From a virus (taxonomy: Duplodnaviria > Caudoviricetes), in the IMG/VR virus record IMGVR_UViG_3300038412_000083, positions 1 through 64,000 of that record: 64,000 nucleotides of DNA. The stretch is one strand, 5' to 3'. Positions 4,675 to 50,497 of this stretch are shown piece after piece. The notes below the pieces were generated by a model that was not told the DNA's origin, did not search any database, and worked only from the letters and a program-made list of their open reading frames with translations. Numbering within the stretch: position 1 is the stretch's first letter; the number at the start of each line of letters is the position of its first letter. The position numbers were made by a program, and so were the translations under genes.

Positions 4675-5910
4675 ATGCAACCACTCCCCAATAATTGCAG
4701 AATAGGTAAATTCTCCGTGTCACCAAAAAACTGGCAATCATCCGCTGCTAAGGTGAATGTGAAATGGAGAATCGTTTATTGGTTTTACGACGATAATTTG
4801 AAACAAAAACGACAGGTTCCCATCAAAGGAATGAACCGGTTTGAAACTTTAAAAGAAAAGCAAGATGCCGTCCGGGCACTAATTAAGGATGAACTTGAGT
4901 CGATAAAGGCCGGTTACAATCCAATAAACAAGAAAGTAGTACAGGAATCGGAAATAAACAAGTTTACAGGGCTTCTAAATGCACTGAATTACGCCTTTGC
5001 TTGTCATAGTTCAGAAATGGATAAGCGAACAACTACCGACGTTAAAAACGTTCTTAAATACATCTTTATCGCAATTCGCGATTTGCGATATGAACACCTG
5101 CCTATCTCTCAGATTGAGCCTATGCACATCAAATTTATTTTAGATGCCTGCGGTGAGATAAAAACTTACACTGATCAGAAAGGGAACGTAAAGCCGCGCG
5201 CCTGGGGGCCATATCAATTTAATCGTTACCGGACTTATCTGTCCTTACTCACGGGACATTTGATTGATAAATTTTTAATAAATACTAACCCGGTTCGTGA
5301 AGTAAGGAAACAGCAGCAATTAATTAAGATCAGGGAAACCGTTACAAAAGATCAAAGACAAAAATTACAGGAAATTAACACCGAGGAACTATACACTTTC
5401 TTTCGGTTCATAAATATTTACTTTCACTCAAACCGCCGGATTACAGAATTACTGGCAGTGAAAAAAGAAAGCGTACGTTTAGAAAATCAAAAGTTCAAGG
5501 TGACAATGAGAAAAGGAAAGAAGTCAAAAGAAATTTGGGCAACAATAGAAGGACCTGCTTTACCTTTTTGGGAGGAAATTTGCTCTGAAGCTGAACCAAA
5601 TCAGTACCTTTTCGGGCTTGATCTCAAACCACAATTTAGGGATAAACCAGCATCAGGGGAAATAGTTGGTAAACGATGGAAACGGCACGTAAAAGATAAG
5701 TTAGGAATTACGGCGGATCTTGCCAGTTTGAGACATACCCACGCCGACGAACTTGCAGAATTATATAGTAAGATAGGAGGCGCAAAAGAAGCTATTAAGG
5801 AAGTGCAAAAGGATATGGATCATTCAACCCCTGTTATTACTATGCGTTATTTACCAGGGCAGGAAGAAAGGAATCATGAAGAAGCGAAGAAAGTAAATAG
5901 TAAATTATAA
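4675..5910 (+). CDS. int: Tyrosine integrase
   Basis: Catalytic motifs RRITELL, ASLRHT, DMDHS and TMRY; N-terminal arm-binding-like region; adjacent attP-like site. Confidence 0.9.
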   Translation: MQPLPNNCRIGKFSVSPKNWQSSAAKVNVKWRIVYWFYDDNLKQKRQVPIKGMNRFETLKEKQDAVRALIKDELESIKAGYNPINKKVVQESEINKFTGLLNALNYAFACHSSEMDKRTTTDVKNVLKYIFIAIRDLRYEHLPISQIEPMHIKFILDACGEIKTYTDQKGNVKPRAWGPYQFNRYRTYLSLLTGHLIDKFLINTNPVREVRKQQQLIKIRETVTKDQRQKLQEINTEELYTFFRFINIYFHSNRRITELLAVKKESVRLENQKFKVTMRKGKKSKEIWATIEGPALPFWEEICSEAEPNQYLFGLDLKPQFRDKPASGEIVGKRWKRHVKDKLGITADLASLRHTHADELAELYSKIGGAKEAIKEVQKDMDHSTPVITMRYLPGQEERNHEEAKKVNSKL

Positions 5911-8896: not shown

Positions 8897-9361
8897 TCAT
8901 AGATTGACAAAAGTTGTCCCAGGAATAAAGTCTTTGTTGTTATGCTTTGCTAAAAGATCCCTCCAATCATACCCAAATGTTTTTTGCAGGTGTGGATTAT
9001 CTTTTATGTGCCGCCAATCGCCGCCCCATTCAAAACCATGTTTCTTAAAGATGTTTACAACGGTCATCCAGTTTTCGTTTACGTCCCATCTTGAATGTCC
9101 GTTTTCCTGAATGACAAAATCAATCGCTAAACCGTAATTATGAAATGATGAACCGCCGGGCGCATTGGTAACTATTTGGCCGGGCTTTGTTCTGCCCTGT
9201 TGGTATAAATCATCGCTCTCCTGAAACGATCTAAGCCCTTCTGTTATGAATGGATGAATGCCTTCAGGAGTTGCTTTAACTGCCTCCATGTAAGCGGCAA
9301 GGGCATCATCTACTAATTTTGGGTGAAGTCCTTTAATTCTTTCGATTGATGTTGTTTCCAT
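8897..9361 (-). CDS. Endolysin, M15-family L-Ala-D-Glu peptidase
   Basis: RSFQESDDLYQQGRT, SFHNYGLAID and DNPHLQ motifs. Confidence 0.9.
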   Translation of the reverse strand: METTSIERIKGLHPKLVDDALAAYMEAVKATPEGIHPFITEGLRSFQESDDLYQQGRTKPGQIVTNAPGGSSFHNYGLAIDFVIQENGHSRWDVNENWMTVVNIFKKHGFEWGGDWRHIKDNPHLQKTFGYDWRDLLAKHNNKDFIPGTTFVNL

Positions 9362-9461
9362 TGATTTTAATTTTGCACCCTTTCGGGTATGATCAATAAA
9401 TGAATTGCCTTATTCGTACCTTATCGGGTGTAGCTTAATTAATAATGAATCAGTTTATACC

Positions 9462-9740
9462 TTATCGGGTGTCGTATTCGTAAATCAAAATTTCCTTTAT
9501 TAAATTTCTCCATACTTTTATCGTTTTCCCGGCTCCATGAAACTCTTTCCATTCGCCGTACATTTGGTAATTATCGGGATGAAGTTTTTTGATATTTTCT
9601 TTTTCCTGATCTAATAATTTTCCGGCCTCCAAAATTGCAATGTTTTTATCTGTATAAATAGGATTTATAATATTCCCTCCTTCGTAAATACTACCTACAA
9701 AAACACCATAGACCTTATTGTCTTTTATTTCTACTGTCAT
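9462..9740 (-). CDS. Hypothetical protein
   Basis: Likely start MTVEIKDNK at 9740 (ATGA overlap with the upstream stop). Confidence 0.6.
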   Translation of the reverse strand: MTVEIKDNKVYGVFVGSIYEGGNIINPIYTDKNIAILEAGKLLDQEKENIKKLHPDNYQMYGEWKEFHGAGKTIKVWRNLIKEILIYEYDTR

Positions 9741-10300
9741 GGTTTTTGCGTTAAAGTATCCATTGACATCAACCCTACTGATTGTAAAATAAAATGCGTT
9801 CCTATCGCTGCCAGTGACAGCCACTCGCCAACTAACAGCGTTACAAATCCTAAATAGTGAAGTGCTATTGCGGTAACCACAAGTATTGAAAGTATTATGC
9901 TTACCACCCTGTCCTTTTTCTTATGGAAGAAAGCCATTACCGCTGCATTCCCGATAAAAAATATTCCGGCAAAAGTGTAATGAATAGCAGCGTATTGAAG
10001 GTGCGGGAAAAGAATAACTCCCAACAAACTAACCCCTAAAACGATATTGTACCACTTCCCATGCTTGTTAAGGCCGTAACGATCTTGTTCTCTGTAATAC
10101 ACAGAGGCATTAAAAATAAAGAGCATTGCAGCCATACAGAGCAGCATCCCAAAGATGTAACTATGCACCATGTAAACGTAATTACTTATGCTTGAACGAA
10201 ATAGATTAGCGTTATCAGCAAGTCGTAAAAATACAGGGATAAATAGGCATATCCCGGCAATTACTCCCTGTAAAATGCTAAATGTTTTGCGTCCGTTCAT
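9737..10300 (-). CDS. Multi-pass membrane protein (DUF998-like)
   Basis: Start MNGRKTF at 10300; about 6 hydrophobic helices; RSSISNY and HYTFAGIFF motifs. Confidence 0.65.
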   Translation of the reverse strand: MNGRKTFSILQGVIAGICLFIPVFLRLADNANLFRSSISNYVYMVHSYIFGMLLCMAAMLFIFNASVYYREQDRYGLNKHGKWYNIVLGVSLLGVILFPHLQYAAIHYTFAGIFFIGNAAVMAFFHKKKDRVVSIILSILVVTAIALHYLGFVTLLVGEWLSLAAIGTHFILQSVGLMSMDTLTQKP

Positions 10301-10307
10301 TGTTAAA

Positions 10308-10667
10308 TTATGGTGCTTGTGTTGGGGCCTGTAATTGTAATAGTTGATTTGTAAGCAACGATTCAAAAAGAGTAATGATACTATTTACAAAAGATTGAAG
10401 ATCTGATGCAAGCTGTTGTTCAACGGAAATAAAAGCGGCTTCTGCAATTTTGCCTTCGGCTGCTAATTTTAATTTCACTTCCTGCCAACTCATTGGATCT
10501 GTCGGGGCCAGTGCAGCCATTCCTATAGCTGTTAATGATGATTTTGCGTCTGCTAAATATCCGGCTCCTGTAGTTAATAATTGTTTTGAATCCGTACCAA
10601 TAGCGGTAACGACCTCACCCGCGAAAGTGGTGTAAATGTTGCTTATAATTGTTTTTATGTCTGACAT
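10308..10667 (-). CDS. Hypothetical lysis-module protein
   Basis: 119 aa, amphipathic; lies between a lipoprotein and the endolysin. Confidence 0.65.
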   Translation of the reverse strand: MSDIKTIISNIYTTFAGEVVTAIGTDSKQLLTTGAGYLADAKSSLTAIGMAALAPTDPMSWQEVKLKLAAEGKIAEAAFISVEQQLASDLQSFVNSIITLFESLLTNQLLQLQAPTQAP

Positions 10668-10685
10668 AATTTTATTTTTTTTAGG

Positions 10686-11111
10686 TTATTTATAAGTTTT
10701 TTCTGTAGTGACAAGTATGTGCCCGATTTGTCTTAATAAGGCTCCATTGACGCTAATATGATTGGTTGAAATATTGCCGTCTTTTTTATGATCCTGCCTT
10801 GCTGATTCGACAATATCCAAATATGTTTTATCAATGGTTAAAATTTGAGTAGGATATTTTCTTGTTGAATCAATGCTTATTTTAGTATTGATAATCGCTT
10901 CTGCATCATCATAAATTGTACTGTTAGCATCGTAACTTAAATTGGCGCCATTGGTAAAGCCTGTATAAAGCGCATTCATTGTACTATCAACAGACACGGC
11001 TGCCTGATAAGTAGCTGAATTGTAGTGTGGCGCGGATAGTTTTTTAAAAAGGCTGCAGCTCGTAAAAGCAAAAGCAATCACAAGTAAGAAGGAAAATTTT
11101 AATGGTTTCAT
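10686..11111 (-). CDS. Lipoprotein (possible spanin component)
   Basis: Lipobox LVIAFAFTS-C. Confidence 0.7.
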   Translation of the reverse strand: MKPLKFSFLLVIAFAFTSCSLFKKLSAPHYNSATYQAAVSVDSTMNALYTGFTNGANLSYDANSTIYDDAEAIINTKISIDSTRKYPTQILTIDKTYLDIVESARQDHKKDGNISTNHISVNGALLRQIGHILVTTEKTYK

Positions 11112-11198
11112 TGGTTTAATTTTTAATGAATAATAAATAATAAGCTATCTCGAATATTACGAGCAGCCAAAAAGCTATTTTATAAAAGTCTATTTGCA

Positions 11199-11510
11199 TT
11201 ATGAGTTTGCTTTTGTAAAGGGTAGCAAAGGTTTAATATCGCCATTCGGGTTTACCGAAATAGCACTATCATTTTTTACAGGTAATTTGGCAACAAAGAA
11301 TCCAATAACTCCGGCCCACATTGCCGCCTTATTTGAAAAGGTAAAAATCCATGCAGGAAAAGTAATTGGTAATTGCGCCTGATAACTTGCTAATAATTGT
11401 GGTAAGCCAGTAACGAAAGCCACCGCTGCGGATAACCATTGAATGATCTGAAAAAATGAAGGTGAAGGCAATTTTAATCGTGCCCAAACTTCCTGAAAGA
11501 ACTTTTTCAT
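11199..11510 (-). CDS. Putative holin
   Basis: Two TM segments; WARLKLPSPSFFQII motif typical of Bacteroidetes phage holins; upstream of the endolysin. Confidence 0.65.
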   Translation of the reverse strand: MKKFFQEVWARLKLPSPSFFQIIQWLSAAVAFVTGLPQLLASYQAQLPITFPAWIFTFSNKAAMWAGVIGFFVAKLPVKNDSAISVNPNGDIKPLLPFTKANS

Positions 11511-11716
11511 AATTTATTTTTTTTGTTTCTTTGATGTTCGTGAAATTTTTCTACTATCTTAATGATATAGATAGAGGATGCTAATAAAGCACAAAAAATA
11601 GTCGCCAATGTAGCAACATAAGTGGCAAGCGTTTGCGAGTGCATAATCTGCAAAAAAATTGTCCCGAAAAAAGAAACACCTGCACCTGCGTTAGCTGTTT
11701 GTAAATCGTCTGTCAT
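11507..11716 (-). CDS. Small membrane protein (holin/antiholin-like)
   Basis: Hydrophobic core and basic C-terminus. Confidence 0.55.
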   Translation of the reverse strand: MTDDLQTANAGAGVSFFGTIFLQIMHSQTLATYVATLATIFCALLASSIYIIKIVEKFHEHQRNKKNKL

Positions 11717-11818: not shown

Positions 11819-11961
11819 TTTACAATTATTGAATCTGATCTATTCCCATCTTTGTCTACTGCTACTATTTTATAAATCTTTTTTACAGGCGGATTAACAA
11901 CTGGTTTGCTCACTGTACACCCACAAACGAAAAATAGTACTATGATTGCAAGTTTTTTCAT
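11815..11961 (-). CDS. 48-aa lipoprotein
   Basis: Manual: MKKLAIIVLFFVCGCTVSKPVVNPPVKKIYKIVAVDKDGNRSDSIIVK; lipobox; below the ORF-track cutoff. Confidence 0.6.
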   Translation of the reverse strand: MKKLAIIVLFFVCGCTVSKPVVNPPVKKIYKIVAVDKDGNRSDSIIVK

Positions 11962-12266
11962 TGGTTAGACAAATGAAAATTATTCGTGGTGTCAAAAACA
12001 GGATTTAAAACATTTTTATCGTATCCGGAAGAAGAATCAATAACGAATGGTGTATAAATTCCACCATGATAAATCGGCGAAATACTACCTTTCCAAATAA
12101 AACCTTCATCTTTTTTTACTTCTTCCAAAGTGGTTACTACCTTATAAACCTTTTCACCAATTTTGATGAACTTCACTTTTCCTATAGGAATAGTAAGAGT
12201 GTCACTTTTTTGCGCTGTGGCTGAAAGTGAAAAAAGAACGATTGCGATTGTTAATAGTTTTTTCAT
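11958..12266 (-). CDS. Exported protein
   Basis: Signal peptide MKKLLTIAIVLFSLSATA-Q. Confidence 0.75.
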   Translation of the reverse strand: MKKLLTIAIVLFSLSATAQKSDTLTIPIGKVKFIKIGEKVYKVVTTLEEVKKDEGFIWKGSISPIYHGGIYTPFVIDSSSGYDKNVLNPVFDTTNNFHLSNQ

Positions 12267-12694
12267 AATTTAATTTTATAAGTTTGATTCCCCGTTGCTT
12301 TTACCCTATTAATTTCTGAAAAATGAATCCCGTCGGTACTTTCGATGATAGAATAGTAATCCAAATTATCTTCATTTTCACTTGTCCAGTTAAGCACTCC
12401 ATTTTGTATAAAAACATTGATCATTTTTACAGGTGTCACCGAAGTAACAAGGATTGTTTTGCTCACCACATTATCTGCTTTTACTCTGAAATAGCCTCCT
12501 GAAATATTTGGAGCTTTGTAAACAAAAGCTGTGTCAGTTATTTTTCCTCTTACAGTTCCTATTGTTATCCAATTAATACCGTCATAGCTTTGTTGGAATT
12601 GGTATAAAGTGTGATTGTAGCTGTTCCAATAAGCTGAATCCTGAGCACTTACCTTTAAAGAGAAAAGAATTAATATGGTAAGTAAAATCTTCAC
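12263..12694 (-). CDS. Exported protein with Ig/FN3-like domains resembling those of T9SS cargo
   Basis: Signal peptide ...SLKVSA-Q; VTPVKM...LNWTSENEDNLDYYSIIESTDGIHFSEINRV. Confidence 0.75.
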   Translation of the reverse strand: MKILLTILILFSLKVSAQDSAYWNSYNHTLYQFQQSYDGINWITIGTVRGKITDTAFVYKAPNISGGYFRVKADNVVSKTILVTSVTPVKMINVFIQNGVLNWTSENEDNLDYYSIIESTDGIHFSEINRVKATGNQTYKIKL

Positions 12695-13842
12695 TGAAAA
12701 ATAATATTGTTATGGATGATACGAACATTAGAAAAGGGAGGTGAACTAACATTTACCGTTACTTCTCCGTAAACCGTTTGTCCATCATCCTGTGTAAGTG
12801 TATTTCTAAAAACATAAATTCCTGTCGTTAATCCTGTTACTGTGGTACTTGCAGAAGTTGATGAAGTTATTGTTGCAGCAGGCCCGCTTGTTTTCGTCCA
12901 CGCATAAGTACCTGAATGACCGGCGGCCCATATAGCTGTTGAATAAATACTTGTTGAACTTGTACTGATAGCCTGATTGCCCGACATTGAAACAGTAGGG
13001 GCATCCGCTATATCTGAAACGTCTTGATAAACTTTATAGCTTTGGGTTACCAAAGAAAATCTTCTACCCCTTGTTGTACTATCTACATTAACCATTGCAC
13101 TATTCCAATCATACAACCCTCCGAACTTCACATAATCGTCAAAGTGCCCTACTTGTCCTGTATCACGCCTATATTTTGTAACCCCATCAACTTGCAAATG
13201 AAAGAATGCTGTTTGGCCTGTATAGCCTTTACCTTCTCTGAGTGTTACCCTTACTGTATGTGGTATATTATACCAACCAGATAAAGTTCCAATTGTGGTA
13301 TTAGCCGTAACAAGTGTTCCACCCCCTACATCATGTACATCACCGCTTATTAAATTGCTGCTTGTATCAAGATCAATTCCCCACACTGTTGCAACCTGAG
13401 TAAGACTATGAATCTGCATAGCCACTAAAATTTGATACCAACTTGTTAGATAATTATAATTTTGTGGAAAATAACCTTTCCATTCAAGCGTGTAAGTATG
13501 GGAAGTATCAATAGTGAAACTATATTGCGAAAGTGTCATTTCTGAACGTGGGTAGCCAGACCCAACAGGTGTACCATCTTTAATTGTACTCCATAATGCA
13601 CCACTTTTGATCTGCTCACCAAAACCTGCATTTCTTCCTACATACCAATTAACGCTTGCAGCATCGTAAAATTCACCATAAGGAGTAGTATTTTCGGCAT
13701 AAAATAAAGTAGTATCTGCACCATTTATTGATGTTAGCGCATTAGCATCTGCCATATTGAAATTATACAACAAAGTGCTGCTCGTAGGCATCTGAGCCTT
13801 TACAATAAGTGGGAAAAGAAATAATATGATTAGTTTTTTCAT
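12691..13842 (-). CDS. Exported polysaccharide-lyase-like (jelly-roll) protein with C-terminal PKD/Ig domain
   Basis: Signal peptide ...PLIVKA-Q; PRSEM and YVKFGGLY lyase-like motifs; YAWTKTSGP...VTGLTTGIYVFR PKD-like domain. Confidence 0.65.
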   Translation of the reverse strand: MKKLIILFLFPLIVKAQMPTSSTLLYNFNMADANALTSINGADTTLFYAENTTPYGEFYDAASVNWYVGRNAGFGEQIKSGALWSTIKDGTPVGSGYPRSEMTLSQYSFTIDTSHTYTLEWKGYFPQNYNYLTSWYQILVAMQIHSLTQVATVWGIDLDTSSNLISGDVHDVGGGTLVTANTTIGTLSGWYNIPHTVRVTLREGKGYTGQTAFFHLQVDGVTKYRRDTGQVGHFDDYVKFGGLYDWNSAMVNVDSTTRGRRFSLVTQSYKVYQDVSDIADAPTVSMSGNQAISTSSTSIYSTAIWAAGHSGTYAWTKTSGPAATITSSTSASTTVTGLTTGIYVFRNTLTQDDGQTVYGEVTVNVSSPPFSNVRIIHNNIIFQ

Positions 13843-16800
13843 TAATTATGGTTTTTCGTTCCTATTAAAGTGACAGATAAATAAGTTGGCTTTGTTGTGA
13901 TTGAAGTCAGTTGACACCACACCCAATTACCAGGCGGTATCTTCGCATTATCAAAACTTGTTACCGTTGTTCCTGTGTAAATATCTGTTGCTGCACTTCC
14001 AGCATTTACCAATTTAGTTGCCCCTGCTGTCACTCCCAAAGAATCATTAAAGTAAATTGTAACTGTCACAGAAGGAGAAGTTCCCTGCAATCCAATCTTC
14101 ATTTTAGTAATATTCAAAGTGTCGGTACCTGAATTGTACATAGAACCATAGATAGCACTTGTGCTCGCTGCAATCGTATCTGCGGCCAGTCCTGAACCGT
14201 AACCGAAGGAAAGGAGTGGGATTGTGTCTCTACGCTCTACAATATTTCCTGTTGAAGTTACTGAGAGATCATAAGCTGGTGTGCTTTGGAAGTTACCTTG
14301 TCCGTATTGATTTAATTGTATTTTGCCGTCATTATTGAACACTACTTTATCGTGAACTACACCGTTAATATCTGAAGTGTCTTTTGTGCCAAAATGGATA
14401 GACGCTCCACTTGAACCTGCTGATATTTTGTCGGCAATAAAAGAGATATTTGCCTCTTCTGATGAAGAACCGGAACTTGTTGGTAATCCAGCTTTTATAG
14501 AATATCCCTGACCTGCTACTGTAGAAGTTGAAAAACCATTTAAGGAAACCATCGGAGAAATAGTGCCGGATATATCTGTCCTTTCAGCATAGAAAGGTGC
14601 TCCAGTAGATGTACTTGAATAAACCCCCAAACCTGTTGTATTTACGGCTTTTATTGCCTGTGTTGCAGTCGAATAATTTGAATAAATACCATTATCTGTG
14701 AAACTTATCTTATTTGTTCCAGCACCCATTATGTACAACTCTTTACTGTTTAATGTCAATGAGTCTGTTTTTGTCAGATTTCCACCTAACTCAACATCAT
14801 TTCCAGTTTTTGTTAAACCATTTGAAGCGGATAAAATACTTAACGCATGAACACTATCCACATATTTTTTATCAGGAACAGTAAGGCTGTCTGCTGTAGT
14901 CATTGTGGGATTGGTGGTGTATTTAGCCTTACCAATTACTGAAATGCCAGAACTGTCAACCTGTAATTCCTTTATTCCTTTAGATATTAATTGTATAGGT
15001 TTAGCACTATATAGCACACTCGCGTAAGCAGATGAACCTGAGTAAAATCCTCCCGCAGTACTACCTTCTTGTCCAAGATAAAATGAACCACCTGCATTAT
15101 TAAACTTATTGTATGTATAGCTGGTTCCTGAATATGTTTGATTAAGAAAGATATTTGAAGATGAGGTTATTGTCCCTGATAAATTAAGTGTTGTTCCCGT
15201 AAGTGTTGTTCCCGTAAGTGTTGTTCCCGTAATTGTTGTTCCCGTAATTGCAGATGTTGAAATTAATGGATTATAAAAATAAATTCCCGCATCATTAATT
15301 TTAGCCCTCATTACTGAATCCGTATAAAAAGTCATATTTCCCCCCCACGTAGTATTCCTACCAACATTAAATTGTAATTCTGCTACATTAGGTTGCATTT
15401 TTATAAAAGATTCCGGTGTTGTATAGTTGTAAAATATAATCCCATATTTATTGCTGTTAGAAGTGGTTGAGAAACTTAATACAGGTGCAGAAGATGTTAG
15501 TTCTAACATACTTTTGGGTGTTCCTGTACCTCCCAGCTTCATAGAATCAGTAGATGAATTACCCTTATCCATCACGCTTTGTAAGCTCGGTATTGATGAT
15601 TTTGAATCATATAAATTCCCCTTATTATTATGCCCAGCAAAAGCCTGAGCAATTATATTCCCCAGAACTATACTTCCATAATAATTTGGGTGCAACCCAT
15701 CTGATGTAAGAGTGGGGATTGTTTGTAAATTAAAGTTTGCAAGAGCGTGTAAGTCAATACACTGTACACCATAATTAGCGCATATTTGAGAAATCAACAC
15801 TTCCAAATCTGTGAGTGTCCACCCGGCTGAATTAGTTGCATGATAAAGCACCCCTGCGCCGTTAGCTTCAGGCGGAGTCATTACATATAATTCAATATTC
15901 GGATTAGCGGATAAAATGGATTCTATCATGTGTTTTAAATACCCTGCGCAAGTCGTTCTATTTGATGAGTCATTTACAGTACCCAAAGAATCGCTCGCTG
16001 CAAAATCATTTACGCCTAATAAAATACTTGCTATATTGAAGGAATTAAAATAGGTTGGATTGGCTGATAAAATTGAATCTAATTTTGCAGATTGTTGATA
16101 AAACCTATTACCAGAAACGCCGTTTGTTACTGTTCCTGTAAGATGAAGCAACGTATCAACCCTTCCGTAATAATGATTGGATGTAGCAGAAAAACTATCC
16201 CCAAATATTACCCATTTCTTCCAATATGGATTCCTGTTTTGATTAAGTGTATCTGTAATATTTGCCTTCAATCCATTTTGATAAAGCGTTGTCCAACCTG
16301 TTGTTGAGTTGGTGGAATCTACTTTACGTAAATACGGACTAAGCATTGATGCTGTGTCTGAGATGTTTAGTTTTGTTATATCGTTTAAGTGACCTTTTTT
16401 TACAGTGTCTTTATCCATCCATACTACACTATTTATGTCAGCATTTGCACTATCTACCTTTTTTAATGTGAAATCGCCATTGGTTTCAAATGCTCCCATT
16501 TCACTGTAAGGGTGTAATCCATATTGTGATCCATAAGGATAAGCTACTGAACCTTTACTAAATACTATTCTGCCTGAATTACTTGAAAATTCCATACCCC
16601 CTGAACCATTGGTACTAATTATTGCACCATCTGTTTTAAGATCATTAGTAGTACTTCCCATCATTAATTTTAACCAATGCCCTGTCCATTCATCTGATGG
16701 ATTATCGGCTACATTATTCTTAAATACAAAGCCTGTTGCTGCCCAATTTAAAGAATCACTATTTTTTTCATACAAATAATTATTTCTATTAAATTCACTT

Positions 16801-17480
16801 GTAATTTTTAAAGCGGTTTGCGTACTATTACTGTTTATGAATATTGGATTAGTAGTAGAGTTACCTGCGTTTGTTACTTTCTGTAAATTTGGTATTGCCC
16901 CAATAGAATCTGCCACAGGTGGCGCAATCTGATTACCATAAACATCTACGATAGTTATTACAATAGAATTTGCAGGCAATGAAGGAACTAAAGCCCTTGC
17001 TGTATCTTCTGTACCTACTAATTTATAAAGCAATCCGCTGGTGTCAGCGTAGATCAAATCACGTCTATAATATCCGCTATCTGCTGAATTAATTATAAAA
17101 GATGAAGGTGTAACTTTCGTGTATATAACTCCGTTATAACTCCATTTTATAGTATCGTTGATCGTTAAGGTAGAATCTACTAAGGTTATACCTCCTGTAG
17201 ACATAAGACCGTTGTTTATGGCACTCGCAGCGTTTATTAATTTTGAAAGAGAATCCCATCTTGAACCCCTCCAAATATAAACTTCATTATTTTTTATTGA
17301 TAGGCCCCTGTCAGTACTTAATAACTGAATAGTATCTTTTGGGAACAACATAGCACTGTCAACTGAGAGTTCTCCATTAAGTTTTACAATGTTGTTCTTA
17401 TTCCCTATTGTTTGCACCGGCTTCTGAGCCATAGCAGCACAACTTAAAATCGTAAAAAGTATGGTTAATATTTTTCTCAT
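13842..17480 (-). CDS. Tail fibre/spike with signal peptide and SGNH (GDSL) esterase domain
   Basis: MRKILTILFTILSCAAMA-Q; SGNH blocks FGDS, GVSG, GVND and DGLHP; repeated IPNLQKVTNAGN/IPSLQSVMDKGN fibre motif; S/T/G/N-rich; follows the structural genes. Confidence 0.8.
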   Translation of the reverse strand: MRKILTILFTILSCAAMAQKPVQTIGNKNNIVKLNGELSVDSAMLFPKDTIQLLSTDRGLSIKNNEVYIWRGSRWDSLSKLINAASAINNGLMSTGGITLVDSTLTINDTIKWSYNGVIYTKVTPSSFIINSADSGYYRRDLIYADTSGLLYKLVGTEDTARALVPSLPANSIVITIVDVYGNQIAPPVADSIGAIPNLQKVTNAGNSTTNPIFINSNSTQTALKITSEFNRNNYLYEKNSDSLNWAATGFVFKNNVADNPSDEWTGHWLKLMMGSTTNDLKTDGAIISTNGSGGMEFSSNSGRIVFSKGSVAYPYGSQYGLHPYSEMGAFETNGDFTLKKVDSANADINSVVWMDKDTVKKGHLNDITKLNISDTASMLSPYLRKVDSTNSTTGWTTLYQNGLKANITDTLNQNRNPYWKKWVIFGDSFSATSNHYYGRVDTLLHLTGTVTNGVSGNRFYQQSAKLDSILSANPTYFNSFNIASILLGVNDFAASDSLGTVNDSSNRTTCAGYLKHMIESILSANPNIELYVMTPPEANGAGVLYHATNSAGWTLTDLEVLISQICANYGVQCIDLHALANFNLQTIPTLTSDGLHPNYYGSIVLGNIIAQAFAGHNNKGNLYDSKSSIPSLQSVMDKGNSSTDSMKLGGTGTPKSMLELTSSAPVLSFSTTSNSNKYGIIFYNYTTPESFIKMQPNVAELQFNVGRNTTWGGNMTFYTDSVMRAKINDAGIYFYNPLISTSAITGTTITGTTLTGTTLTGTTLNLSGTITSSSNIFLNQTYSGTSYTYNKFNNAGGSFYLGQEGSTAGGFYSGSSAYASVLYSAKPIQLISKGIKELQVDSSGISVIGKAKYTTNPTMTTADSLTVPDKKYVDSVHALSILSASNGLTKTGNDVELGGNLTKTDSLTLNSKELYIMGAGTNKISFTDNGIYSNYSTATQAIKAVNTTGLGVYSSTSTGAPFYAERTDISGTISPMVSLNGFSTSTVAGQGYSIKAGLPTSSGSSSEEANISFIADKISAGSSGASIHFGTKDTSDINGVVHDKVVFNNDGKIQLNQYGQGNFQSTPAYDLSVTSTGNIVERRDTIPLLSFGYGSGLAADTIAASTSAIYGSMYNSGTDTLNITKMKIGLQGTSPSVTVTIYFNDSLGVTAGATKLVNAGSAATDIYTGTTVTSFDNAKIPPGNWVWCQLTSITTKPTYLSVTLIGTKNHN
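15185..15248 (-). repeat. 15-bp coding repeat (TGTT[I/L] x4)
   Basis: gtaa(g/t)tgttgttccc tandem inside the fibre gene. Confidence 0.85.
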
Positions 17481-18652
17481 ATCGTATTTATGGATATTAA
17501 TTCTGAATCTTGAATTGGAGTTGAGAATGTTATAGTATTGCTTAAATAAGTCTTTGTTAAAAATTCTCCGCCGTCCAAAGGATCAATACCAGGAACTTTT
17601 ATACCACCCCTGTAAACATTCACGTATTTGTTTGCAATAAGACTATTCACGAAGGTTGTAGCTCCAACTACTATACCTGCAGAGATTGCTGCTGAAGTGC
17701 CAGCTACTACTTCAAGCACATAAGGAACTACCGGAGCCGGAGTGCTACCGCAATCATAAACATAAGCCGATATAGGAGCGTTTGTATGTGTTCTGCTAAG
17801 GGTTACGTTATTATTTAAGATGTCAATTATTTCCTGTATGTAAGTATCAACACCACCGCTATCAGAAGCGCATATTCTTTTTTGAGCATGAGCGTACAAT
17901 GTGTAAGCATACTCATAATCTGCTTTTGCGTTATCGTATTTTTGACAACTATTAATCAAAGCATCAAGCCTTGTTTTTAACGTTGTCATATCGGTAAGTA
18001 ACTGAGCAGAAGTAGGGGGTGTATAAACGTCCACGTTAAATACACTTTCTAAGTAGTCAACGATGCTTAAATAGCTGTAACTTGTTGACTGATAGGTTAT
18101 GGTTGCTGTAAAGGTTATAGCATAAGCAGAATCATAATAAGAACCCGCATATTTAAGATCAAAAGATGCTGAATTGGTGCCCGTAATTGTCGCCGCCGAC
18201 ATTACCGCTTGCCATGTACGTACTACCGTTTGCGTGAAACTTCCGGCAGTGTAAACTGTACTATCATCATAACTTAAAGCCGGAGTAAATACATCAAAAT
18301 TCTTAGTAAGAACAACTGTTGGTTTTGTATATCCTATCGTGAATGATCGTGATAACAATGTAGGTACATATCCATCCGCGGAAACTTCATACTTAATGGT
18401 GTATTCTCCCTGCTGTAGAAGATTTGCCGAAGTCAATCTAAGGGCTATTGAAGCAATTAAAGTACCACCTGAGATGTCCGGGGATGTAAACGTTCCCGTC
18501 CTTGTTATTCCATCCGGCTGAGTTATAGTAAAAATCCCTGTAGGAACTACACCAACCGGGTAAACAGAGTTATCAGTCAGCTTAAATACAGGGGCAGAGA
18601 TATTTGTAACATCTGCCTGTACTAAAAATGAAATATAACTTGATAAATCCAT
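17477..18652 (-). CDS. Virion structural protein (tail hub or fibre anchor candidate)
   Basis: Beta-rich, no signal peptide; first gene after a late promoter, upstream of the fibre. Confidence 0.6.
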   Translation of the reverse strand: MDLSSYISFLVQADVTNISAPVFKLTDNSVYPVGVVPTGIFTITQPDGITRTGTFTSPDISGGTLIASIALRLTSANLLQQGEYTIKYEVSADGYVPTLLSRSFTIGYTKPTVVLTKNFDVFTPALSYDDSTVYTAGSFTQTVVRTWQAVMSAATITGTNSASFDLKYAGSYYDSAYAITFTATITYQSTSYSYLSIVDYLESVFNVDVYTPPTSAQLLTDMTTLKTRLDALINSCQKYDNAKADYEYAYTLYAHAQKRICASDSGGVDTYIQEIIDILNNNVTLSRTHTNAPISAYVYDCGSTPAPVVPYVLEVVAGTSAAISAGIVVGATTFVNSLIANKYVNVYRGGIKVPGIDPLDGGEFLTKTYLSNTITFSTPIQDSELISINTI

Positions 18653-18667
18653 GTATTTAGATTAAAA

Positions 18668-18721
18668 CAAAGTTAGACGGTTAGGTACATGGTGTACCCT
18701 AAAATACGGGGAGAAATATTT
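18668..18721 (-). promoter_or_regulatory. Late promoter, copy 1
   Basis: AAATATTTCTCCCC...TACA-CCA-TGTA-N10-TAACTTTG, 54 bp. Confidence 0.8.
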
Positions 18722-45958: not shown

Positions 45959-46483
45959 TTGAGCAATCTTAATTTTTCCGGTGTGCAGGCTATTATCCTA
46001 CCTGATACACCACCTACACGGGTAAACGGCATCGTTATTCCTGATGAAGCCAGAAAGCCCACTAATACAGGAACTATAATCTCTATTGCTCCAAATGATA
46101 ATCTTAAAGACGGCGACCAAGTAGGGTTTAACTTCTACACTGGCTACCGATTTGAACATGAAGGAGTAAAATATTTATCTATTAATCACAATAATATCTT
46201 ATCAAAAGACATGATACCATTACACGCAAGGGTTTTTGTAGAACCCATAAAAGCAGAGAAATCATTATCCGAAGGCGGTGTAGTATTACTTGAGGATTCA
46301 GTTACCAGGGATGGCATAGTAGTATCTACCGGAAGTGGAACCAAAGATGACCCAATGTTACTTGGAGTGGGTGACTTAGTAACATACCCGAAGAACGCCG
46401 GAACAACAATCAAAGGGCTTTTACTGTTAAACCAAGCAGATATTATGTGCTTTGAGGACAGGCCTGAAACTGAAAACGAATAA
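45959..46483 (+). CDS. Tandem GroES (Cpn10) domain protein
   Basis: GIVIPDEARKPTNTGTIISI...DGDQV and PLHARVFVEP...SEGGVVL...GIVVSTGSG...VGDLV...LLNQADIM. Confidence 0.85.
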   Translation: MSNLNFSGVQAIILPDTPPTRVNGIVIPDEARKPTNTGTIISIAPNDNLKDGDQVGFNFYTGYRFEHEGVKYLSINHNNILSKDMIPLHARVFVEPIKAEKSLSEGGVVLLEDSVTRDGIVVSTGSGTKDDPMLLGVGDLVTYPKNAGTTIKGLLLLNQADIMCFEDRPETENE

Positions 46484-46636
46484 AATGAAATACTTCTATA
46501 TAATTTTCTCAATAATTTCATTAATAAATGCGGTAGTTTATCTGAATAACGATTATCTCTTTGCATTTTGGCTGACAGCATTTGTTATCTCTATGGGTAT
46601 AGAGGATATAATTACCGAGATAAAAAATCTGAAATA

Positions 46637-47176
46637 ATGGTACACATAATCAACATACCATACAGAAGTGAAAGAAAAAGAATAGTGGAGCAGGAAATGA
46701 TTCAGCAGGGAATAACTGACTACCGTTTTTGGGATGGCATTGTTGATAATCCTGTATGTAAAGGCGTATCAAAAGCACACAAGCAGATAGTGGCCTATGC
46801 CAAACAATATGAACTTCCTGAGATAACGATTGCAGAGGATGATATTAAATTTCCTGCAGAAGATGGTTATGAATACTTTCTCAGTAAGAAACCGGAAGAT
46901 TTTGACCTTTATTTAGGGGGAATATACAGGGGAGAAATTAAAGACGGTAAAACAACCGACTTTTCTTCGCTTCACCTGTACATTATTAAAGCAAAGTTCT
47001 ACGATACTTTCTTAGGCATTGATGAAACAAAACATTTGGACACCGAACTTGCCGGTAAAGGAGATTACCACGTTTGTTACCCCTTCGCAGCTATTCAACA
47101 CAATGGGTACAGCGATGTAGAGCGAGGTAAAACCAATTTCGACAACTTATTAAAAGGCAAACTAATACACCAATGA
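46637..47176 (+). CDS. Glycosyltransferase (GT25-like)
   Basis: Start MVHIINIPYRSERK; GVSKAHK and IAEDDIKF motifs. Confidence 0.7.
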   Translation: MVHIINIPYRSERKRIVEQEMIQQGITDYRFWDGIVDNPVCKGVSKAHKQIVAYAKQYELPEITIAEDDIKFPAEDGYEYFLSKKPEDFDLYLGGIYRGEIKDGKTTDFSSLHLYIIKAKFYDTFLGIDETKHLDTELAGKGDYHVCYPFAAIQHNGYSDVERGKTNFDNLLKGKLIHQ

Positions 47177-47868
47177 AATCAATAGATGCTATTATTGTTT
47201 CTGATGCAAAGAATGAAGGACTAAGGCGATTGACACAGCAAACTATTGACACGGCTACAGATAGCGAAAAGAATGTAGAGGTAAATATTATTGTAATAGA
47301 GAAGCAAGACTGTAAATTTTTTAATGCTCTTACAATAAAACAGGAAGGAGAATTTTGCTACAATAAATATCTTAACCAGGGAGCGGCATTAGGTAGTTCA
47401 GAATATATAGCATTTTGTAATAACGATTTAATATTTATTGACAATTGGGCGACAAAAATAATAGAAGCGATGGAAGAACACAATGTAAGTTCTGCCTGTC
47501 CTTATAGCCCTATTTCAAACTTTGAAAATAAAACCGGAATAGGTGAAAATACCGGAGTTCACTTTGGTTACGAGGTAAGAAAAGAGTTTGTCGGATGGTG
47601 CATTGTTTGGAAAAGAAGCCTTTGGGATAAAATGAAACTTGATGAAGGAGTAAAGTTTTGGGCCAGCGACAATGCAACTGCGAAAATTCTTATGAACGCT
47701 GGGGAAAAGCATATTTTAGTTACCAACTCAGTAGTTCATCATGTAGAAAACGGGAGTAATACATTAAACACAATTGAACCTACTAAAAAAGATGAATTGA
47801 TGCACCGGCAGATTAAAATATACAACCGGCTTTACAACGACAATTATTTCAACTTAGGAACAGAATGA
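47173..47868 (+). CDS. Glycosyltransferase (GT-A/GT2-like)
   Basis: FCYNKYLNQG...IAFCNNDLIF...FWASDN. Confidence 0.8.
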   Translation: MKSIDAIIVSDAKNEGLRRLTQQTIDTATDSEKNVEVNIIVIEKQDCKFFNALTIKQEGEFCYNKYLNQGAALGSSEYIAFCNNDLIFIDNWATKIIEAMEEHNVSSACPYSPISNFENKTGIGENTGVHFGYEVRKEFVGWCIVWKRSLWDKMKLDEGVKFWASDNATAKILMNAGEKHILVTNSVVHHVENGSNTLNTIEPTKKDELMHRQIKIYNRLYNDNYFNLGTE

Positions 47869-48455
47869 AATCAGTAACGGTAATAATAGGTTGGTACGGT
47901 GACATAGCAATATGGAATCCTTTTATACAAAGGGCTTTGTGGTCGGTATTGAACCAATCTATTCCTGCTGACAGGATTTTAATAAGCAAAGGAGATTATT
48001 TACAAGACGCAAGGAACGCCGGACTAAATGTTGATACGCAGTATATTATTTTTCTTGACGCTGATGACGAACTTGATTACCACTACATAAAGTCAATGCT
48101 CAGTGGTGAAGGAGATATAAGAGTTCCTTTTGTTAGGAATATTTACCCAGATGGAACAATTTCCGACGATCAACGGTGGTACACACCAAAGAATTTAATT
48201 GAAGGACAGAATTATATAGTCATTGGCCCGATGATAAATACTGAATTATTCAAAAAGGCAGGAGGATTTAGAAATTTACCTTCACTCGAAGACTACGATT
48301 TATGGCTAAGGATGGAAGAAGCCGGTGCCGTCATTAAGCAATGTACCAACGCAATTTACAAAGTACATCAAAGAGAGAATAGCCGGAGTAAAGATCAGAA
48401 CGCAATCTTAAACCAAATTGTTTCAGAAGCAAAACAAAGGAGGAAAATAGCATGA
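47865..48455 (+). CDS. Glycosyltransferase (GT2)
   Basis: ARNAGL...IIFLDADDEL...GGF...EDYDLWLR. Confidence 0.9.
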   Translation: MKSVTVIIGWYGDIAIWNPFIQRALWSVLNQSIPADRILISKGDYLQDARNAGLNVDTQYIIFLDADDELDYHYIKSMLSGEGDIRVPFVRNIYPDGTISDDQRWYTPKNLIEGQNYIVIGPMINTELFKKAGGFRNLPSLEDYDLWLRMEEAGAVIKQCTNAIYKVHQRENSRSKDQNAILNQIVSEAKQRRKIA

Positions 48456-49123
48456 AAAACGTTTCACTTGTAATAATCACCGACGGAAGGTTGGAGTATT
48501 TGGAAAAAACAATGAACTCTTTATACAATAATGTGAAATATCCTTTTGTAGAGAAGATTATCGTAAATGATTGTATAGATATAAGATTTAGAAATAAGGT
48601 AAAGGAACTTGCAGATATTTATTCCTTTTTTACAATTAACCACAATACAAAAATGGGATTTGCCAGAGTTTACAACACCGCATGGAAAAGAATTTGGCCA
48701 TCATCAGACTTCGTTTTCAGCACTGAGGATGACTTTACCTTCAATGAAGAAATTGATGTAGAGAAAATGATTGAAATTTTGGAGTACGATAGAAACTTAG
48801 TTCAGGTAGCCTTAAAACGTCAGGCATGGAATGAAGAAGAAAAGAAAGCCGGAGGAATAGTTGAGCTGTGGCCTGATCAGTACGAAGAAAAAAACGTAGG
48901 TGATTTATCATGGACTGAACACAGGCAGTTTTTTACCACCAATCCAAGTCTGATATCAAAATGGGTGATTGACAGAGGGTGGCCGTTGGTTCCTGATAGT
49001 GAAGGCATATTTACTCATGAACTTTTTAAAAATCCTAATTACAAATCTTGCTTTTATGGCGGAAAATTTGATAAGCCAAAAGTGGAACACATTGGGATAA
49101 CCCGCGCAGGAATAAATTATTAA
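48452..49123 (+). CDS. Glycosyltransferase (GT-A/GT2-like)
   Basis: LVIITDGR...IIVND...FSTEDDF...VEHIG. Confidence 0.8.
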   Translation: MKNVSLVIITDGRLEYLEKTMNSLYNNVKYPFVEKIIVNDCIDIRFRNKVKELADIYSFFTINHNTKMGFARVYNTAWKRIWPSSDFVFSTEDDFTFNEEIDVEKMIEILEYDRNLVQVALKRQAWNEEEKKAGGIVELWPDQYEEKNVGDLSWTEHRQFFTTNPSLISKWVIDRGWPLVPDSEGIFTHELFKNPNYKSCFYGGKFDKPKVEHIGITRAGINY

Positions 49124-49127
49124 AACT

Positions 49128-49682
49128 ATGATAGGAAAGACAGGTATTTGGACTAATGAAGAAAACTTCGCTCACGCTTTCAGTTATTATACTGCAAGGT
49201 TTATTTCAAAATACTTTGAAAAAGATAATACAGTATTTGATATTGGATGCGGCAGAGGAACATACTTGCAATACTTGAAAGATGTTGGATTTATGGATTT
49301 ATCAGGAATTGAAGGTAGCAAGTTAGATAGTTTTGATTTCGATGATATTTTATGTGCTGATTTAACCCATCCAATTTTTATTCCACAAAAAGGTAATGTT
49401 ATTTCCATTGAAGTTTTTGAGCATATTCCACCTGAATTTGAAAGTGTGTTTGTAGATAATATTTGCCGTTTATGCGATAATAAACTTGTGTTATCAGTAG
49501 CAGTTGAAGACCAACCGGGCATAGGTCATGTAAATTGCAAAAACAACGACTACGTGATTAATCTATTTCAAGGAAAAGGATTTTGGTTTAACAAAGAAAA
49601 GACGGAAGAAGTAAGATCAACGGTAGAAGATCATGTTTCTTATTTACGGAAAACGTTAATGGTTTTTGAAAAAATAAAGTAA
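49128..49682 (+). CDS. Class I SAM-dependent methyltransferase
   Basis: VFDIGCGRG, SIEVFEHIP and GHVN motifs. Confidence 0.85.
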   Translation: MIGKTGIWTNEENFAHAFSYYTARFISKYFEKDNTVFDIGCGRGTYLQYLKDVGFMDLSGIEGSKLDSFDFDDILCADLTHPIFIPQKGNVISIEVFEHIPPEFESVFVDNICRLCDNKLVLSVAVEDQPGIGHVNCKNNDYVINLFQGKGFWFNKEKTEEVRSTVEDHVSYLRKTLMVFEKIK

Positions 49683-50497
49683 TGAAGATAGCAGCAATAA
49701 CGATGGTTAAAAACGAAGAAGATATAATCTATCATTCTTTGTTGAATATGGCCGAGGAAGGTATTGACGTAATTATTGTAGCCGATAATATGAGTACCGA
49801 TAAAACTCTTGCTGAAATAAATAAAGCTAAAGATGTTCTTAATGGTTCTACCTGCCAAATAATTATTTTGGAGGATAAGGAAGTAGGGTATTATCAATCC
49901 GAAAAGATGACAGCACTTGCTCATAAAGCGTATAATGAATTTAGCGCAGATTGGATCATACCAATGGATGCAGATGAAATATGGTTTGCACATGAAGGGA
50001 AAATTTCAGATGTTATAAAATCATTGCCTGAGAATATAAATGTTATCGAGGCTTCATTATACAATCATTTTCCAACAAGTATAGATGTTGATAGTATAAT
50101 CCCATTTGAAAGTATTGTGTGGAGACAAAAAGAAAAAGGTGCGCTTCTAAAAATGGCTGTAAAATATCATAAGGATATGGTTATTGAACAAGGTAATCAT
50201 TCAGTAAGACTACCTGTACCACAAGTAAAATCAAATTGTTTAGAAATAAGGCACTTTCCCTACAGAACATGGGAGCAGTTTAAGAACAAGGCATTAAACG
50301 GAGCAAAAGCATACAAGGCTACAACTCTACCAGAAAATATAGGAAGTCACTGGAGAGGTTACGGTGAAATGATTGAAAAGTGGGGGGATGAAGTTGTTAG
50401 AAAAGAAGTCTATGAAAAGTATTTTTCATTTTTTTCACCTTTTGACAACGATATGATTTTAGATCCGGCGCCTTTTAGACGATGGAATAAACAATAA
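49682..50497 (+). CDS. Glycosyltransferase (GT2-like)
   Basis: TMVKNEEDII...VADNMSTDKT...WIIPMDADE...IRHFPYR. Confidence 0.85.
   Translation: MKIAAITMVKNEEDIIYHSLLNMAEEGIDVIIVADNMSTDKTLAEINKAKDVLNGSTCQIIILEDKEVGYYQSEKMTALAHKAYNEFSADWIIPMDADEIWFAHEGKISDVIKSLPENINVIEASLYNHFPTSIDVDSIIPFESIVWRQKEKGALLKMAVKYHKDMVIEQGNHSVRLPVPQVKSNCLEIRHFPYRTWEQFKNKALNGAKAYKATTLPENIGSHWRGYGEMIEKWGDEVVRKEVYEKYFSFFSPFDNDMILDPAPFRRWNKQ

Follow-up and report, generated by a model that had tools for sequence, protein, structure and literature searches.

Assembly of tailed phages is taught as a purely cytoplasmic process, and periplasmic glycosylation by the host is thought to serve proteins of the cell only. The general O-glycosylation motif of the Bacteroidota is D-S/T-A/I/L/V/M/T, and this motif is enriched above chance in exported proteins, an enrichment that is not shown by every species of the phylum (PMC12871550). 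Phages are not mentioned in this review of O-glycosylation (PMC12871550), and in full-text literature searches we found no paper connecting fibres of phages with Sec export or with O-glycosylation in the Bacteroidota. We describe here a fibre-like phage protein of 1212 amino acids (aa), termed P0001, whose gene lies at positions 13842-17480 on the minus strand of a 64,000-nucleotide (nt) stretch of DNA, the window, which comprises positions 1 to 64,000 of the IMG/VR virus record IMGVR_UViG_3300038412_000083. The record is a complete-looking virus genome of 74,050 bp with direct terminal repeats at its ends; other P and L numbers used below denote homologues of P0001 and related loci. P0001 resembles known Bacteroidota O-glycosylation substrates in its predicted signal peptide, in the motif, in L/I/V/A/T at +1, in a slight preference of S over T and in the enrichment. 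It differs from them in that it is phage-encoded, belongs to a virion late operon, is fibre-like and has a high density of predicted sites, at 20.6 per 1000 aa. On balance, and with confidence only a little above even, we read P0001 as a receptor-binding fibre that is exported via Sec, O-glycosylated by the host and attached to the particle once the holin has opened the inner membrane.

The closest parallel is found in the Cellulophaga phages phi18:3 and phi46:3 (Pachyviridae). As we take the source phage of P0001 to be, they are podophages of Bacteroidota, and the TerL, portal and large tail protein of the two sides are distantly related; the source portal and a 1134-aa tail protein are distant homologues of phi46:3 proteins, hence the virion modules are related. 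A further likeness is a run of consecutive proteins adjoining the lysis genes, with leaders that obey the Bacteroidota Q-rule, that is, with Gln at +1 of the cut (PMC5837995). In phi18:3 (KC821620.1) the consecutive proteins gp085-087 begin with such leaders (…FGYS/Q, …GVSA/Q and …GLNA/Q, the slash marking the cut), are encoded just ahead of the lysis genes and are annotated in GenBank as 'structural protein', based on tandem mass spectrometry (MS/MS) proteomics. In phi46:3 (NC_021792.1) five Q-rule leader proteins, gp079-083, include a 'pectate lyase' and a 'tail fiber protein'. The leaders are unannotated in these records, and we found no paper discussing the leaders of these structural proteins. 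The leader proteins in the phi18:3 virion MS/MS data make an unusual assembly route more plausible. Cultured phages with a related TerL all infect Bacteroidota, namely Flavobacterium, Cellulophaga, Bacteroides, Tenacibaculum and Azobacteroides. From these relatives, the -7 box of the promoters described below and the Q-rule leaders, we infer that the host belongs to this phylum.

Several other systems are similar to P0001 in part. Q-rule proteins of Porphyromonas gingivalis phages are likewise phage products adapted to the host Sec/signal peptidase I pathway (PMC10367356). However, they are described as possible host modifiers, not as fibres, and have no link to sequons. G7C gp63.1 and the epsilon15 tailspike are, as far as is known, leaderless and fold and attach in the cytoplasm. 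Both share with P0001 the combination of a receptor-binding protein and an esterase-type domain that is presumed to act on surface polysaccharide, and esterase domains in tailspikes and fibres have been described for these two (PMC10743462; bioRxiv 10.64898/2026.07.31.742079). The MAT fibres of Bdellovibrio are Sec-exportable, tail-fibre-like trimers that are functional and fold outside the cytoplasm, and in them, too, the signal peptide precedes a conserved domain (PMC10769870). In contrast to P0001, they are surface adhesins of a bacterial predator of another phylum, without O-glycosylation sequons. A receptor-binding protein with a cleavable Sec leader is also known in g3p of filamentous phages, which however are not tailed and assemble at the membrane. 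Tailed virions can carry glycans as well, as in mycobacteriophages, where they are added by the phage's own enzymes on leaderless proteins. Such virion glycosylation by phage glycosyltransferases is mentioned in the literature (PMC11256854), whereas for P0001 the host periplasmic system is proposed.

Predicted signal peptide and O-glycosylation sequons of P0001

P0001 begins with MRKILTILFTILSCAAMA, followed by QKPVQ. The first 18 residues (17427-17480, minus strand) form a predicted signal peptide with n, h and c regions: MRK with the basic residues R2 and K3, a hydrophobic core of 9-10 residues (ILTILFTIL), and SCAAMA. Signal peptidase I (SPase I) is predicted to cut before Gln19 in A-M-A/Q, with A16 at -3, A18 at -1 and Gln19 at +1. 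The call rests on these classical features and on conservation among homologues. A leader ending in [AGS]Q is present in all nine homologues that share the fibre domains (P0002-P0009 and P0012), most of which also have a sequon excess, while two homologues that share the esterase domain alone have no leader and no sequon excess. The signal peptide proposed in a previous sequence-only reading of this DNA is thus backed by classical features and by conservation, as a prediction. Similar Q-rule leaders are found on the three proteins encoded downstream in the same operon. We consider it very probable, from these features, that P0001 would be exported.

Other sorting routes were tried. A lipoprotein processed by SPase II was rejected: Cys14 (ILSC) is present in P0001, P0022 and P0042, absent in P0025 and most homologues, and since it is unconserved while the [AGS]Q cut site is conserved, it does not mark a lipobox. 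Cargo of the type IX secretion system (T9SS) was rejected because no C-terminal sorting domain was found (NCBIfam at E <= 0.05; Pfam at E <= 0.1, with GDSL as the only match), and a divergent sorting domain of this kind retains a small residual chance. An in-frame Met17 (17430-17432) lies two residues ahead of the predicted cut and could yield a leaderless isoform, MAQKP…; this candidate was rejected as Met17 is not conserved among homologues.

P0001 contains 25 strict D[ST][AILVMT] sequons and 32 D[ST] pairs, so that 32 of its 60 Asp residues (53%) are followed by S/T. The manual estimates of the sequence-only reading, about 25 strict and about 31 relaxed motifs and roughly half of the Asp residues, were accurate. 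In 20,000 shuffles the strict motif occurred 5.7 +/- 2.2 times and none reached 25 (z about 8.6), which places P0001 above the shuffled background that this reading had named as a check; shuffling inside 60-aa blocks gave 5.8 +/- 2.2, with a maximum of 16. None of eight control motifs (E[ST]h, N[ST]h, K[ST]h, h[ST]D, [ST]Dh, Dh[ST], D[ST][not h] and N-x-S/T) exceeds its expected count. The third position of the sequons is Leu in nine, Ile in six, Ala in four, Val in three, Thr in two and Met in one, and the middle position is Ser in 15 and Thr in ten. Both match the published residue preference of glycosylation sites (PMC12871550). All 25 sequons lie downstream of the leader and are spread over every domain.

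Among about 53 open reading frames (ORFs) of the window, P0001 is the sole one above z = 3. The 1134-aa tail protein has 4 sequons (4.4 expected) and the major capsid protein (MCP) 3 (1.8 expected), just as had been estimated for these two controls, and a 2990-aa protein has 3 against 9.4 expected. Conserved sites in P0001 are D49-T, D102-S-T and D159-T. Six other sites are unique to P0001 and not seen in relatives, which looks like ongoing selection for sites. Given export, it is likely that P0001 would actually be glycosylated.

A unit within P0001, NISDTASMLSPYLRKVDS (aa 369-394; about 16299-16376, minus strand), holds two sequons. In other phage fibres with a leader (P0071, P0043, P0040 and P0098) the same unit recurs up to about 21 times, and P0071 reaches 55 sequons against 12 expected. 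The repeat may be built as a glycan carrier.

Association of leaders and sequons across related phages

An exhaustive family search with P0001 residues 1-420 gave 504 hits, of which 150 representatives were examined. Leaders were found in 84 of 156 family representatives by a strict rule and in 92 of 151 by a lenient rule, and the 92 leader-bearing proteins contain 1360 sequons against 411 expected (3.3x). The association also holds within a single shared domain of about 115 aa, which has 1.98 sequons in proteins with a leader (n=60) versus 0.70 in leaderless proteins (n=47; Mann-Whitney p = 3e-8).

With an alignment of the MCP, 64 related loci were retrieved from IMG/VR, and they split into two groups. 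In the first group (GC content 0.32-0.42) the large proteins encoded after the capsid genes have Q-rule leaders and more sequons than expected, with observed versus expected counts of 33/8.1, 27/8.1, 24/7.1, 23/3.4 and 20/4.5. The second group is a sister clade (GC content 0.40-0.45) with leaderless proteins of 782-2306 aa at the fibre locus, which have about 39 sequons versus 72 expected; among these proteins, L041 (1831 aa) has matches to tail-fiber families of PHROG. When the first-group genomes are pooled, Q-rule leader proteins have 294 sequons versus 98 expected (3.0x), while the leaderless proteins of the same genomes have 200 versus 246 (0.81x). The second group also has a few membrane or lipoproteins with 3x enrichment, hence its phages probably have glycosylating hosts as well, and their fibres are simply retained in the cytoplasm. 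The excess therefore tracks the leader among homologues, among proteins of the same genomes and between sister clades, which answers two comparisons that the sequence-only reading had proposed, with homologous fibres and with cytoplasmic phage proteins. The predicted leader together with the sequon excess is a lineage-wide trait. Leaders as a general trait of Bacteroidota phage fibres were rejected, as the fibres of Elemovirus and of Bacteroides phage B40-8 are leaderless.

In the closest relative, L073, the counterpart of the 391-aa gene that stands next to P0001 is followed by four leader proteins of 988, 664, 531 and 126 aa. The first three have 25 sequons versus 6.4 expected, 12 versus 2.7 and 8 versus 1.6, respectively, and the 531-aa protein matches the PHROG 'tail spike protein' at 1e-23.

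Two further observations concern the sequons of phage proteins in general. Leaderless phage proteins, window-wide and in loci L008-L070, are below the shuffle prediction for D[ST]h (0.81x and 0.70x), so the excess in exported proteins is larger than the shuffle baseline suggests. Spanin-like lipoproteins or membrane-anchored proteins beside the lysis genes of Bacteroidota phages are strongly sequon-enriched, with observed versus expected counts of 4/0.4 (L012:18424-18927), 5/0.5 (L016:20479-20985), 7/1.1 (L050:17641-18348), 5/0.8 (L070:19930-20475) and 5/0.8 (Bacteroides phage B40-8, L075:15801-16406). Phage lysis proteins may also be host-glycosylated.

Fibre domains and the late operon

Right after the predicted cleavage site, P0001 has a conserved module of about 70 aa (17211-17426, minus strand; Q-x-P-x-x-Q-x-[IL]-G ... 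D-T ... W), which is common to the first leader-bearing fibre of many related phages. In an alignment of 11 such first-fibre proteins D31-T32 and W57 are invariant, and the C-terminal parts differ. A search of PDB sequences with this module gave chance-level matches only. It is followed by a beta-sandwich (aa 83-190; 16911-17234, minus strand) that resembles the N-terminal 'shoulder' domain of phage receptor-binding proteins (RBPs) and is modelled by AlphaFold2 (AF2) with a predicted local distance difference test score (pLDDT) of 76-90. Over residues 81-188 the identity to 'minor tail proteins' of Pseudomonas jumbo phages is 40-42%. The regions aa 89-186 and 240-340 are modelled with confidence by AF2. 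With VIA-align, aa 83-190 match SPP1 gp22 (Z 6.7), Mtd (Z 6.1) and the lactococcal p2 RBP (Z 5.9), and further the tail fibres of HFTV1 and A-1(L) and TssK, the matches other than TssK spanning Z 5.2-6.7; aa 240-340 resemble beta-helical spike and fibre pieces. The BFVD search returned 38 matches at E <= 1e-3, and among the named ones are many RBPs, tail fiber and minor tail proteins.

The sole Pfam match of P0001 is an SGNH/GDSL hydrolase (esterase) domain at aa 425-602 (15675-16208, minus strand; PF13472, E 5e-15, 56.9 bits against a cut-off of 32.9), with 3dc7 and 7bxd as PDB relatives. Its catalytic blocks GDS, GxND and DxxH are intact by sequence (FGDSFS, GVNDF and DGLHPN), and it is a predicted hydrolase. 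The C-terminal domain (aa 1077-1212; 13845-14252, minus strand) contains 4 sequons, is common to other leader-bearing fibres and shares 45-57% identity with the C-termini of P0009 and P0012; these 136 aa have no match in Pfam, NCBIfam or PHROG. Searches of PHROGs and a protein atlas with the whole protein gave nothing firm, and the MCP, P0001 and another leader-bearing fibre found no useful match to close cultured relatives among GenBank phages. The N-terminal 390 aa are conserved among phages and the distal parts are shuffled, and all genomic contexts of other family members that were checked are phage late regions. Besides the 1134-aa tail protein, the 74-kb genome has no other fibre-sized ORF. 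By homology, predicted fold, synteny and promoter, P0001 looks like a receptor-binding-type tail fibre.

The minus-strand gene order runs from the tail genes, including that of the 1134-aa protein, via the 2990-aa giant protein to TerL, portal and an SU10-type MCP, then to a 295-aa and a 391-aa gene, the fibre gene, three small genes and the lysis region. The fibre operon is headed by a late promoter element (18668-18716, minus strand), which consists of TTTCTCCYC, a spacer of 30-40 nt and TAAYTTTG. Exactly five copies occur in the window (18668, 22232, 27408, 38796 and 44884), all on the minus strand, and shuffles contain none. They are near-identical, with an invariant TTTCTCC box, a short palindrome TACAnnnTGTA and TAAYTTTG, a Bacteroidota-type -7 box (TAnnTTTG). 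Every copy precedes a virion gene block, and one stands directly upstream of the 391-aa gene.

The 391-aa protein (17477-18652, minus strand) has no signal peptide, its stop codon overlaps the fibre start (ATGA), and it has 2 sequons versus 2.5 expected. Its gene stands separate in the source phage and in most relatives, while distant relatives have its homologue as the N-terminal part of a leaderless large fibre-locus protein, by fusion (L006/L057:12312-18899, 2195 aa; L067:12282-17660, 1792 aa). Because of this fusion the 391-aa protein is a likely candidate for the virion-side anchor of the fibre. Its AF2 model (pLDDT 74.5) comprises two FN3/Ig-like domains, a 3-helix bundle and a small beta domain, and a fold search with the model gave generic FN3 and helical-bundle matches only, which are uninformative. 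A frameshift fusion of the 391-aa gene and the fibre across the ATGA overlap, mimicking L057 and L067, was rejected since an upstream slippery heptamer is absent.

Downstream of the fibre gene, on the same strand, lie the genes of a 383-aa protein (12691-13842) with a predicted signal peptide (…LIVKA/Q) and a C-terminal PKD domain (PF22352, E 3.6e-10), a 143-aa protein (12263-12694; …KVSA/Q) with a weak F5/8 type C match below cut-off, and, as last gene of the operon, a 102-aa protein (11958-12266; …SATA/Q) with 2 sequons versus 0.3 expected. A terminator-like hairpin followed by a T run (11601-11617, minus strand) closes the operon. As the promoter lies upstream and the hairpin after the last gene, the 391-aa gene, the fibre gene and the three small leader genes together make up a single late unit. 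The lysis region (8897-11510, minus strand) follows, with a 103-aa membrane protein as holin candidate (11199-11510), a lipoprotein (…FTSC; 10686-11111), a DUF7103 membrane protein and an M15 endolysin without signal peptide (8897-9361). A tyrosine integrase gene (PF00589) is located at 4675-5910 on the plus strand of this genome with its direct terminal repeats, and given the integrase the source phage may be temperate.

Proposed export and assembly, and rival explanations

The route that we propose for P0001 would start with late synthesis of a receptor-binding fibre with a polysaccharide esterase domain, made in a Bacteroidota podophage infection together with its leaderless anchor-like protein and sent through Sec. 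SPase I would cut before Gln19, which would cyclise to pyroglutamate as in host proteins, and the host general O-glycosylation system would modify the fibre in the periplasm at many of the 25 D-S/T-hydrophobic sites. Capsids and tails would assemble in the cytoplasm, so that the glycosylated fibre would meet the particle only after perforation of the inner membrane or at lysis. Canonical holins make very large holes. Since the endolysin is leaderless, a hole-forming holin would be needed here, and the proposed mixing step depends on this reasoning: the holin would perforate the inner membrane, and periplasm and cytoplasm would mix within the still intact outer membrane. Docking via the conserved post-cleavage module of the fibre could then take place ahead of cell rupture, with the 391-aa protein as a possible partner. 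Maturation of the fibre is probably extracytoplasmic, and by analogy to the Cellulophaga phages we regard it as somewhat more likely than not that P0001 is virion-borne. The sequence-only reading had suggested Sec routing of the fibre for coating with host glycan, with self-mimicry, protease shielding or receptor tuning as conceivable benefits; the conserved leader, the leader-linked and motif-specific excess and the fibre-like nature of the protein lend this reading partial support in silico.

Several points weigh against an exported fibre that joins the virion. To our knowledge, no tailed phage has been documented to add an exported protein to its virion, and docking after lysis would compete with dilution. 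The virion evidence for phi18:3 is database annotation alone and indirect, and virion preparations can carry contaminants. The leader proteins of phi18:3 and phi46:3 share no detectable sequence with P0001, and their leader-bearing structural proteins are sequon-poor, with 3 versus 9.8 expected in phi18:3 (L078:2892-8584) and 3 versus 15.6 in phi46:3 (L077:5344-13946). Within P0001 itself, AF2 confidence is low across the post-leader module, and hhalign gives a probability of 0.1% for its comparison with the N-terminus of leaderless fibres, hence no homology. The fold-match Z values (5-6.7) are only middling, and therefore we take these matches as support, not as proof. In beta-helix proteins encoded downstream in sister phages the leader passes directly into the enzyme fold, as in free secreted enzymes. 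No prophage relatives were found in species-representative genomes when these were scanned with alignments of the fibre and of the MCP. The low sequon counts of the Cellulophaga proteins would mean either a host without glycosylation or an avoidance of sites. Because these proteins have leaders and few sequons, it would seem that export is the more widespread trait, to which dense glycosylation was added in a lineage-specific way.

The main rival is that P0001 and its small partners are exported accessory proteins that never join the virion. An esterase-bearing binding protein could modify or strip the polysaccharide receptor from the periplasm and cause superinfection exclusion, or keep progeny off debris like a receptor-destroying enzyme, while adsorption proper would fall to the 1134-aa tail protein, possibly together with the 391-aa protein. 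Signal peptides and a sequon excess fit any periplasmic protein, and since T9SS and lipoprotein sorting signals are absent, the exported proteins should stay periplasmic. Enzyme domains are a feature of the family, SGNH in P0001 and Pel9A-like, beta-helix, LamG and PKD domains in relatives, of which the beta-helix and Pel9A-like ones start right after the leader. The Q-rule proteins of P. gingivalis phages are read by their authors as host-modifying (PMC10367356), and the source phage has an integrase. However, P0001 is expressed from a virion late promoter and is translationally coupled to the anchor-like 391-aa gene, and the same locus in the sister clade holds leaderless proteins, one of which (L041) matches the tail-fiber families. 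Homology and fold are those of RBPs and tail fibres, a conserved post-leader module on otherwise variable proteins is the pattern of a docking domain, and the leader-bearing phi18:3 proteins are annotated from virion MS/MS. We thus consider purely accessory proteins rather unlikely.

Export without virion assembly could also end at the surface, with the fibre displayed or shed on infected cells or outer-membrane vesicles, in the manner of Bdellovibrio MAT adhesins, as a tether or decoy. The architecture of signal peptide, conserved domain and variable fibre is MAT-like (PMC10769870), and the heavy predicted glycan load is as expected for surface proteins. Against this stand the lack of a surface-sorting signal (neither a T9SS C-terminal domain nor a conserved lipobox), the synteny and promoter arguments, and the few minutes from late expression to lysis, which make display or shedding very improbable. 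We see marginally less chance still that the leader is unused in infection and the fibre assembles in the cytoplasm, its sequons being structural, compositional or a leftover of a host gene, and unglycosylated. Cytoplasmic assembly is the rule in all studied tailed phages, one D-S-T of the shared domain is common in leaderless homologues too (0.70 per domain, 1.4x expectation), and Met17 could in principle start a leaderless isoform. But the leader is conserved across very divergent homologues and Met17 is not, the sequon excess tracks the leader in three independent comparisons, sequons are still gained at new sites, and leaderless proteins of the first-group genomes are below expectation (0.81x).

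If the exported fibre does join the virion, a wider reading can be put forward, tentatively and with somewhat less than even confidence. The lineage would build its receptor-binding apparatus in two compartments, with heads, tails and anchor made in the cytoplasm and pyroglutamate-capped, O-glycan-coated fibres and spike enzymes exported. Fibres would be added only between holin triggering and rupture of the outer membrane, and virions would leave wearing host-type glycans, again a reading that we hold only tentatively. These glycans would possibly be edited by an operon of the phage's own that encodes a methyltransferase and five glycosyltransferases. This operon (46568-50497, plus strand, with 45959-46483) follows a GroES-like gene and contains a GT25-like gene (weak, below cut-off), four GT2-like glycosyltransferase genes and an S-adenosylmethionine (SAM) methyltransferase gene, and all of its products are leaderless. 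A conceivable role for them is editing of the lipid-linked glycan with which the host decorates exported proteins. A link of glycosyltransferases to leader-bearing fibres was rejected: GT2 genes are present in both the leader-fibre and the leaderless-fibre clade (9 of 14 and 5 of 12 records), and the association is not clean.

Should fibres such as P0001 indeed be exported and glycosylated as proposed, this would add a new step to phage morphogenesis, in which fibre attachment is holin-gated or occurs after lysis and the timing of lysis is coupled to infectivity. Virions of abundant Bacteroidota phages in gut, soil and sea may then carry host-type glycans, which would affect receptor binding, protease resistance and recognition by the immune system and mucus. 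Host glycosylation genes would be phage dependency factors and hence a route to resistance, and phage infectivity would become a tractable reporter for the still unexplained O-glycosylation of the Bacteroidota. Annotation pipelines should drop the signal peptide as an argument against a structural role.

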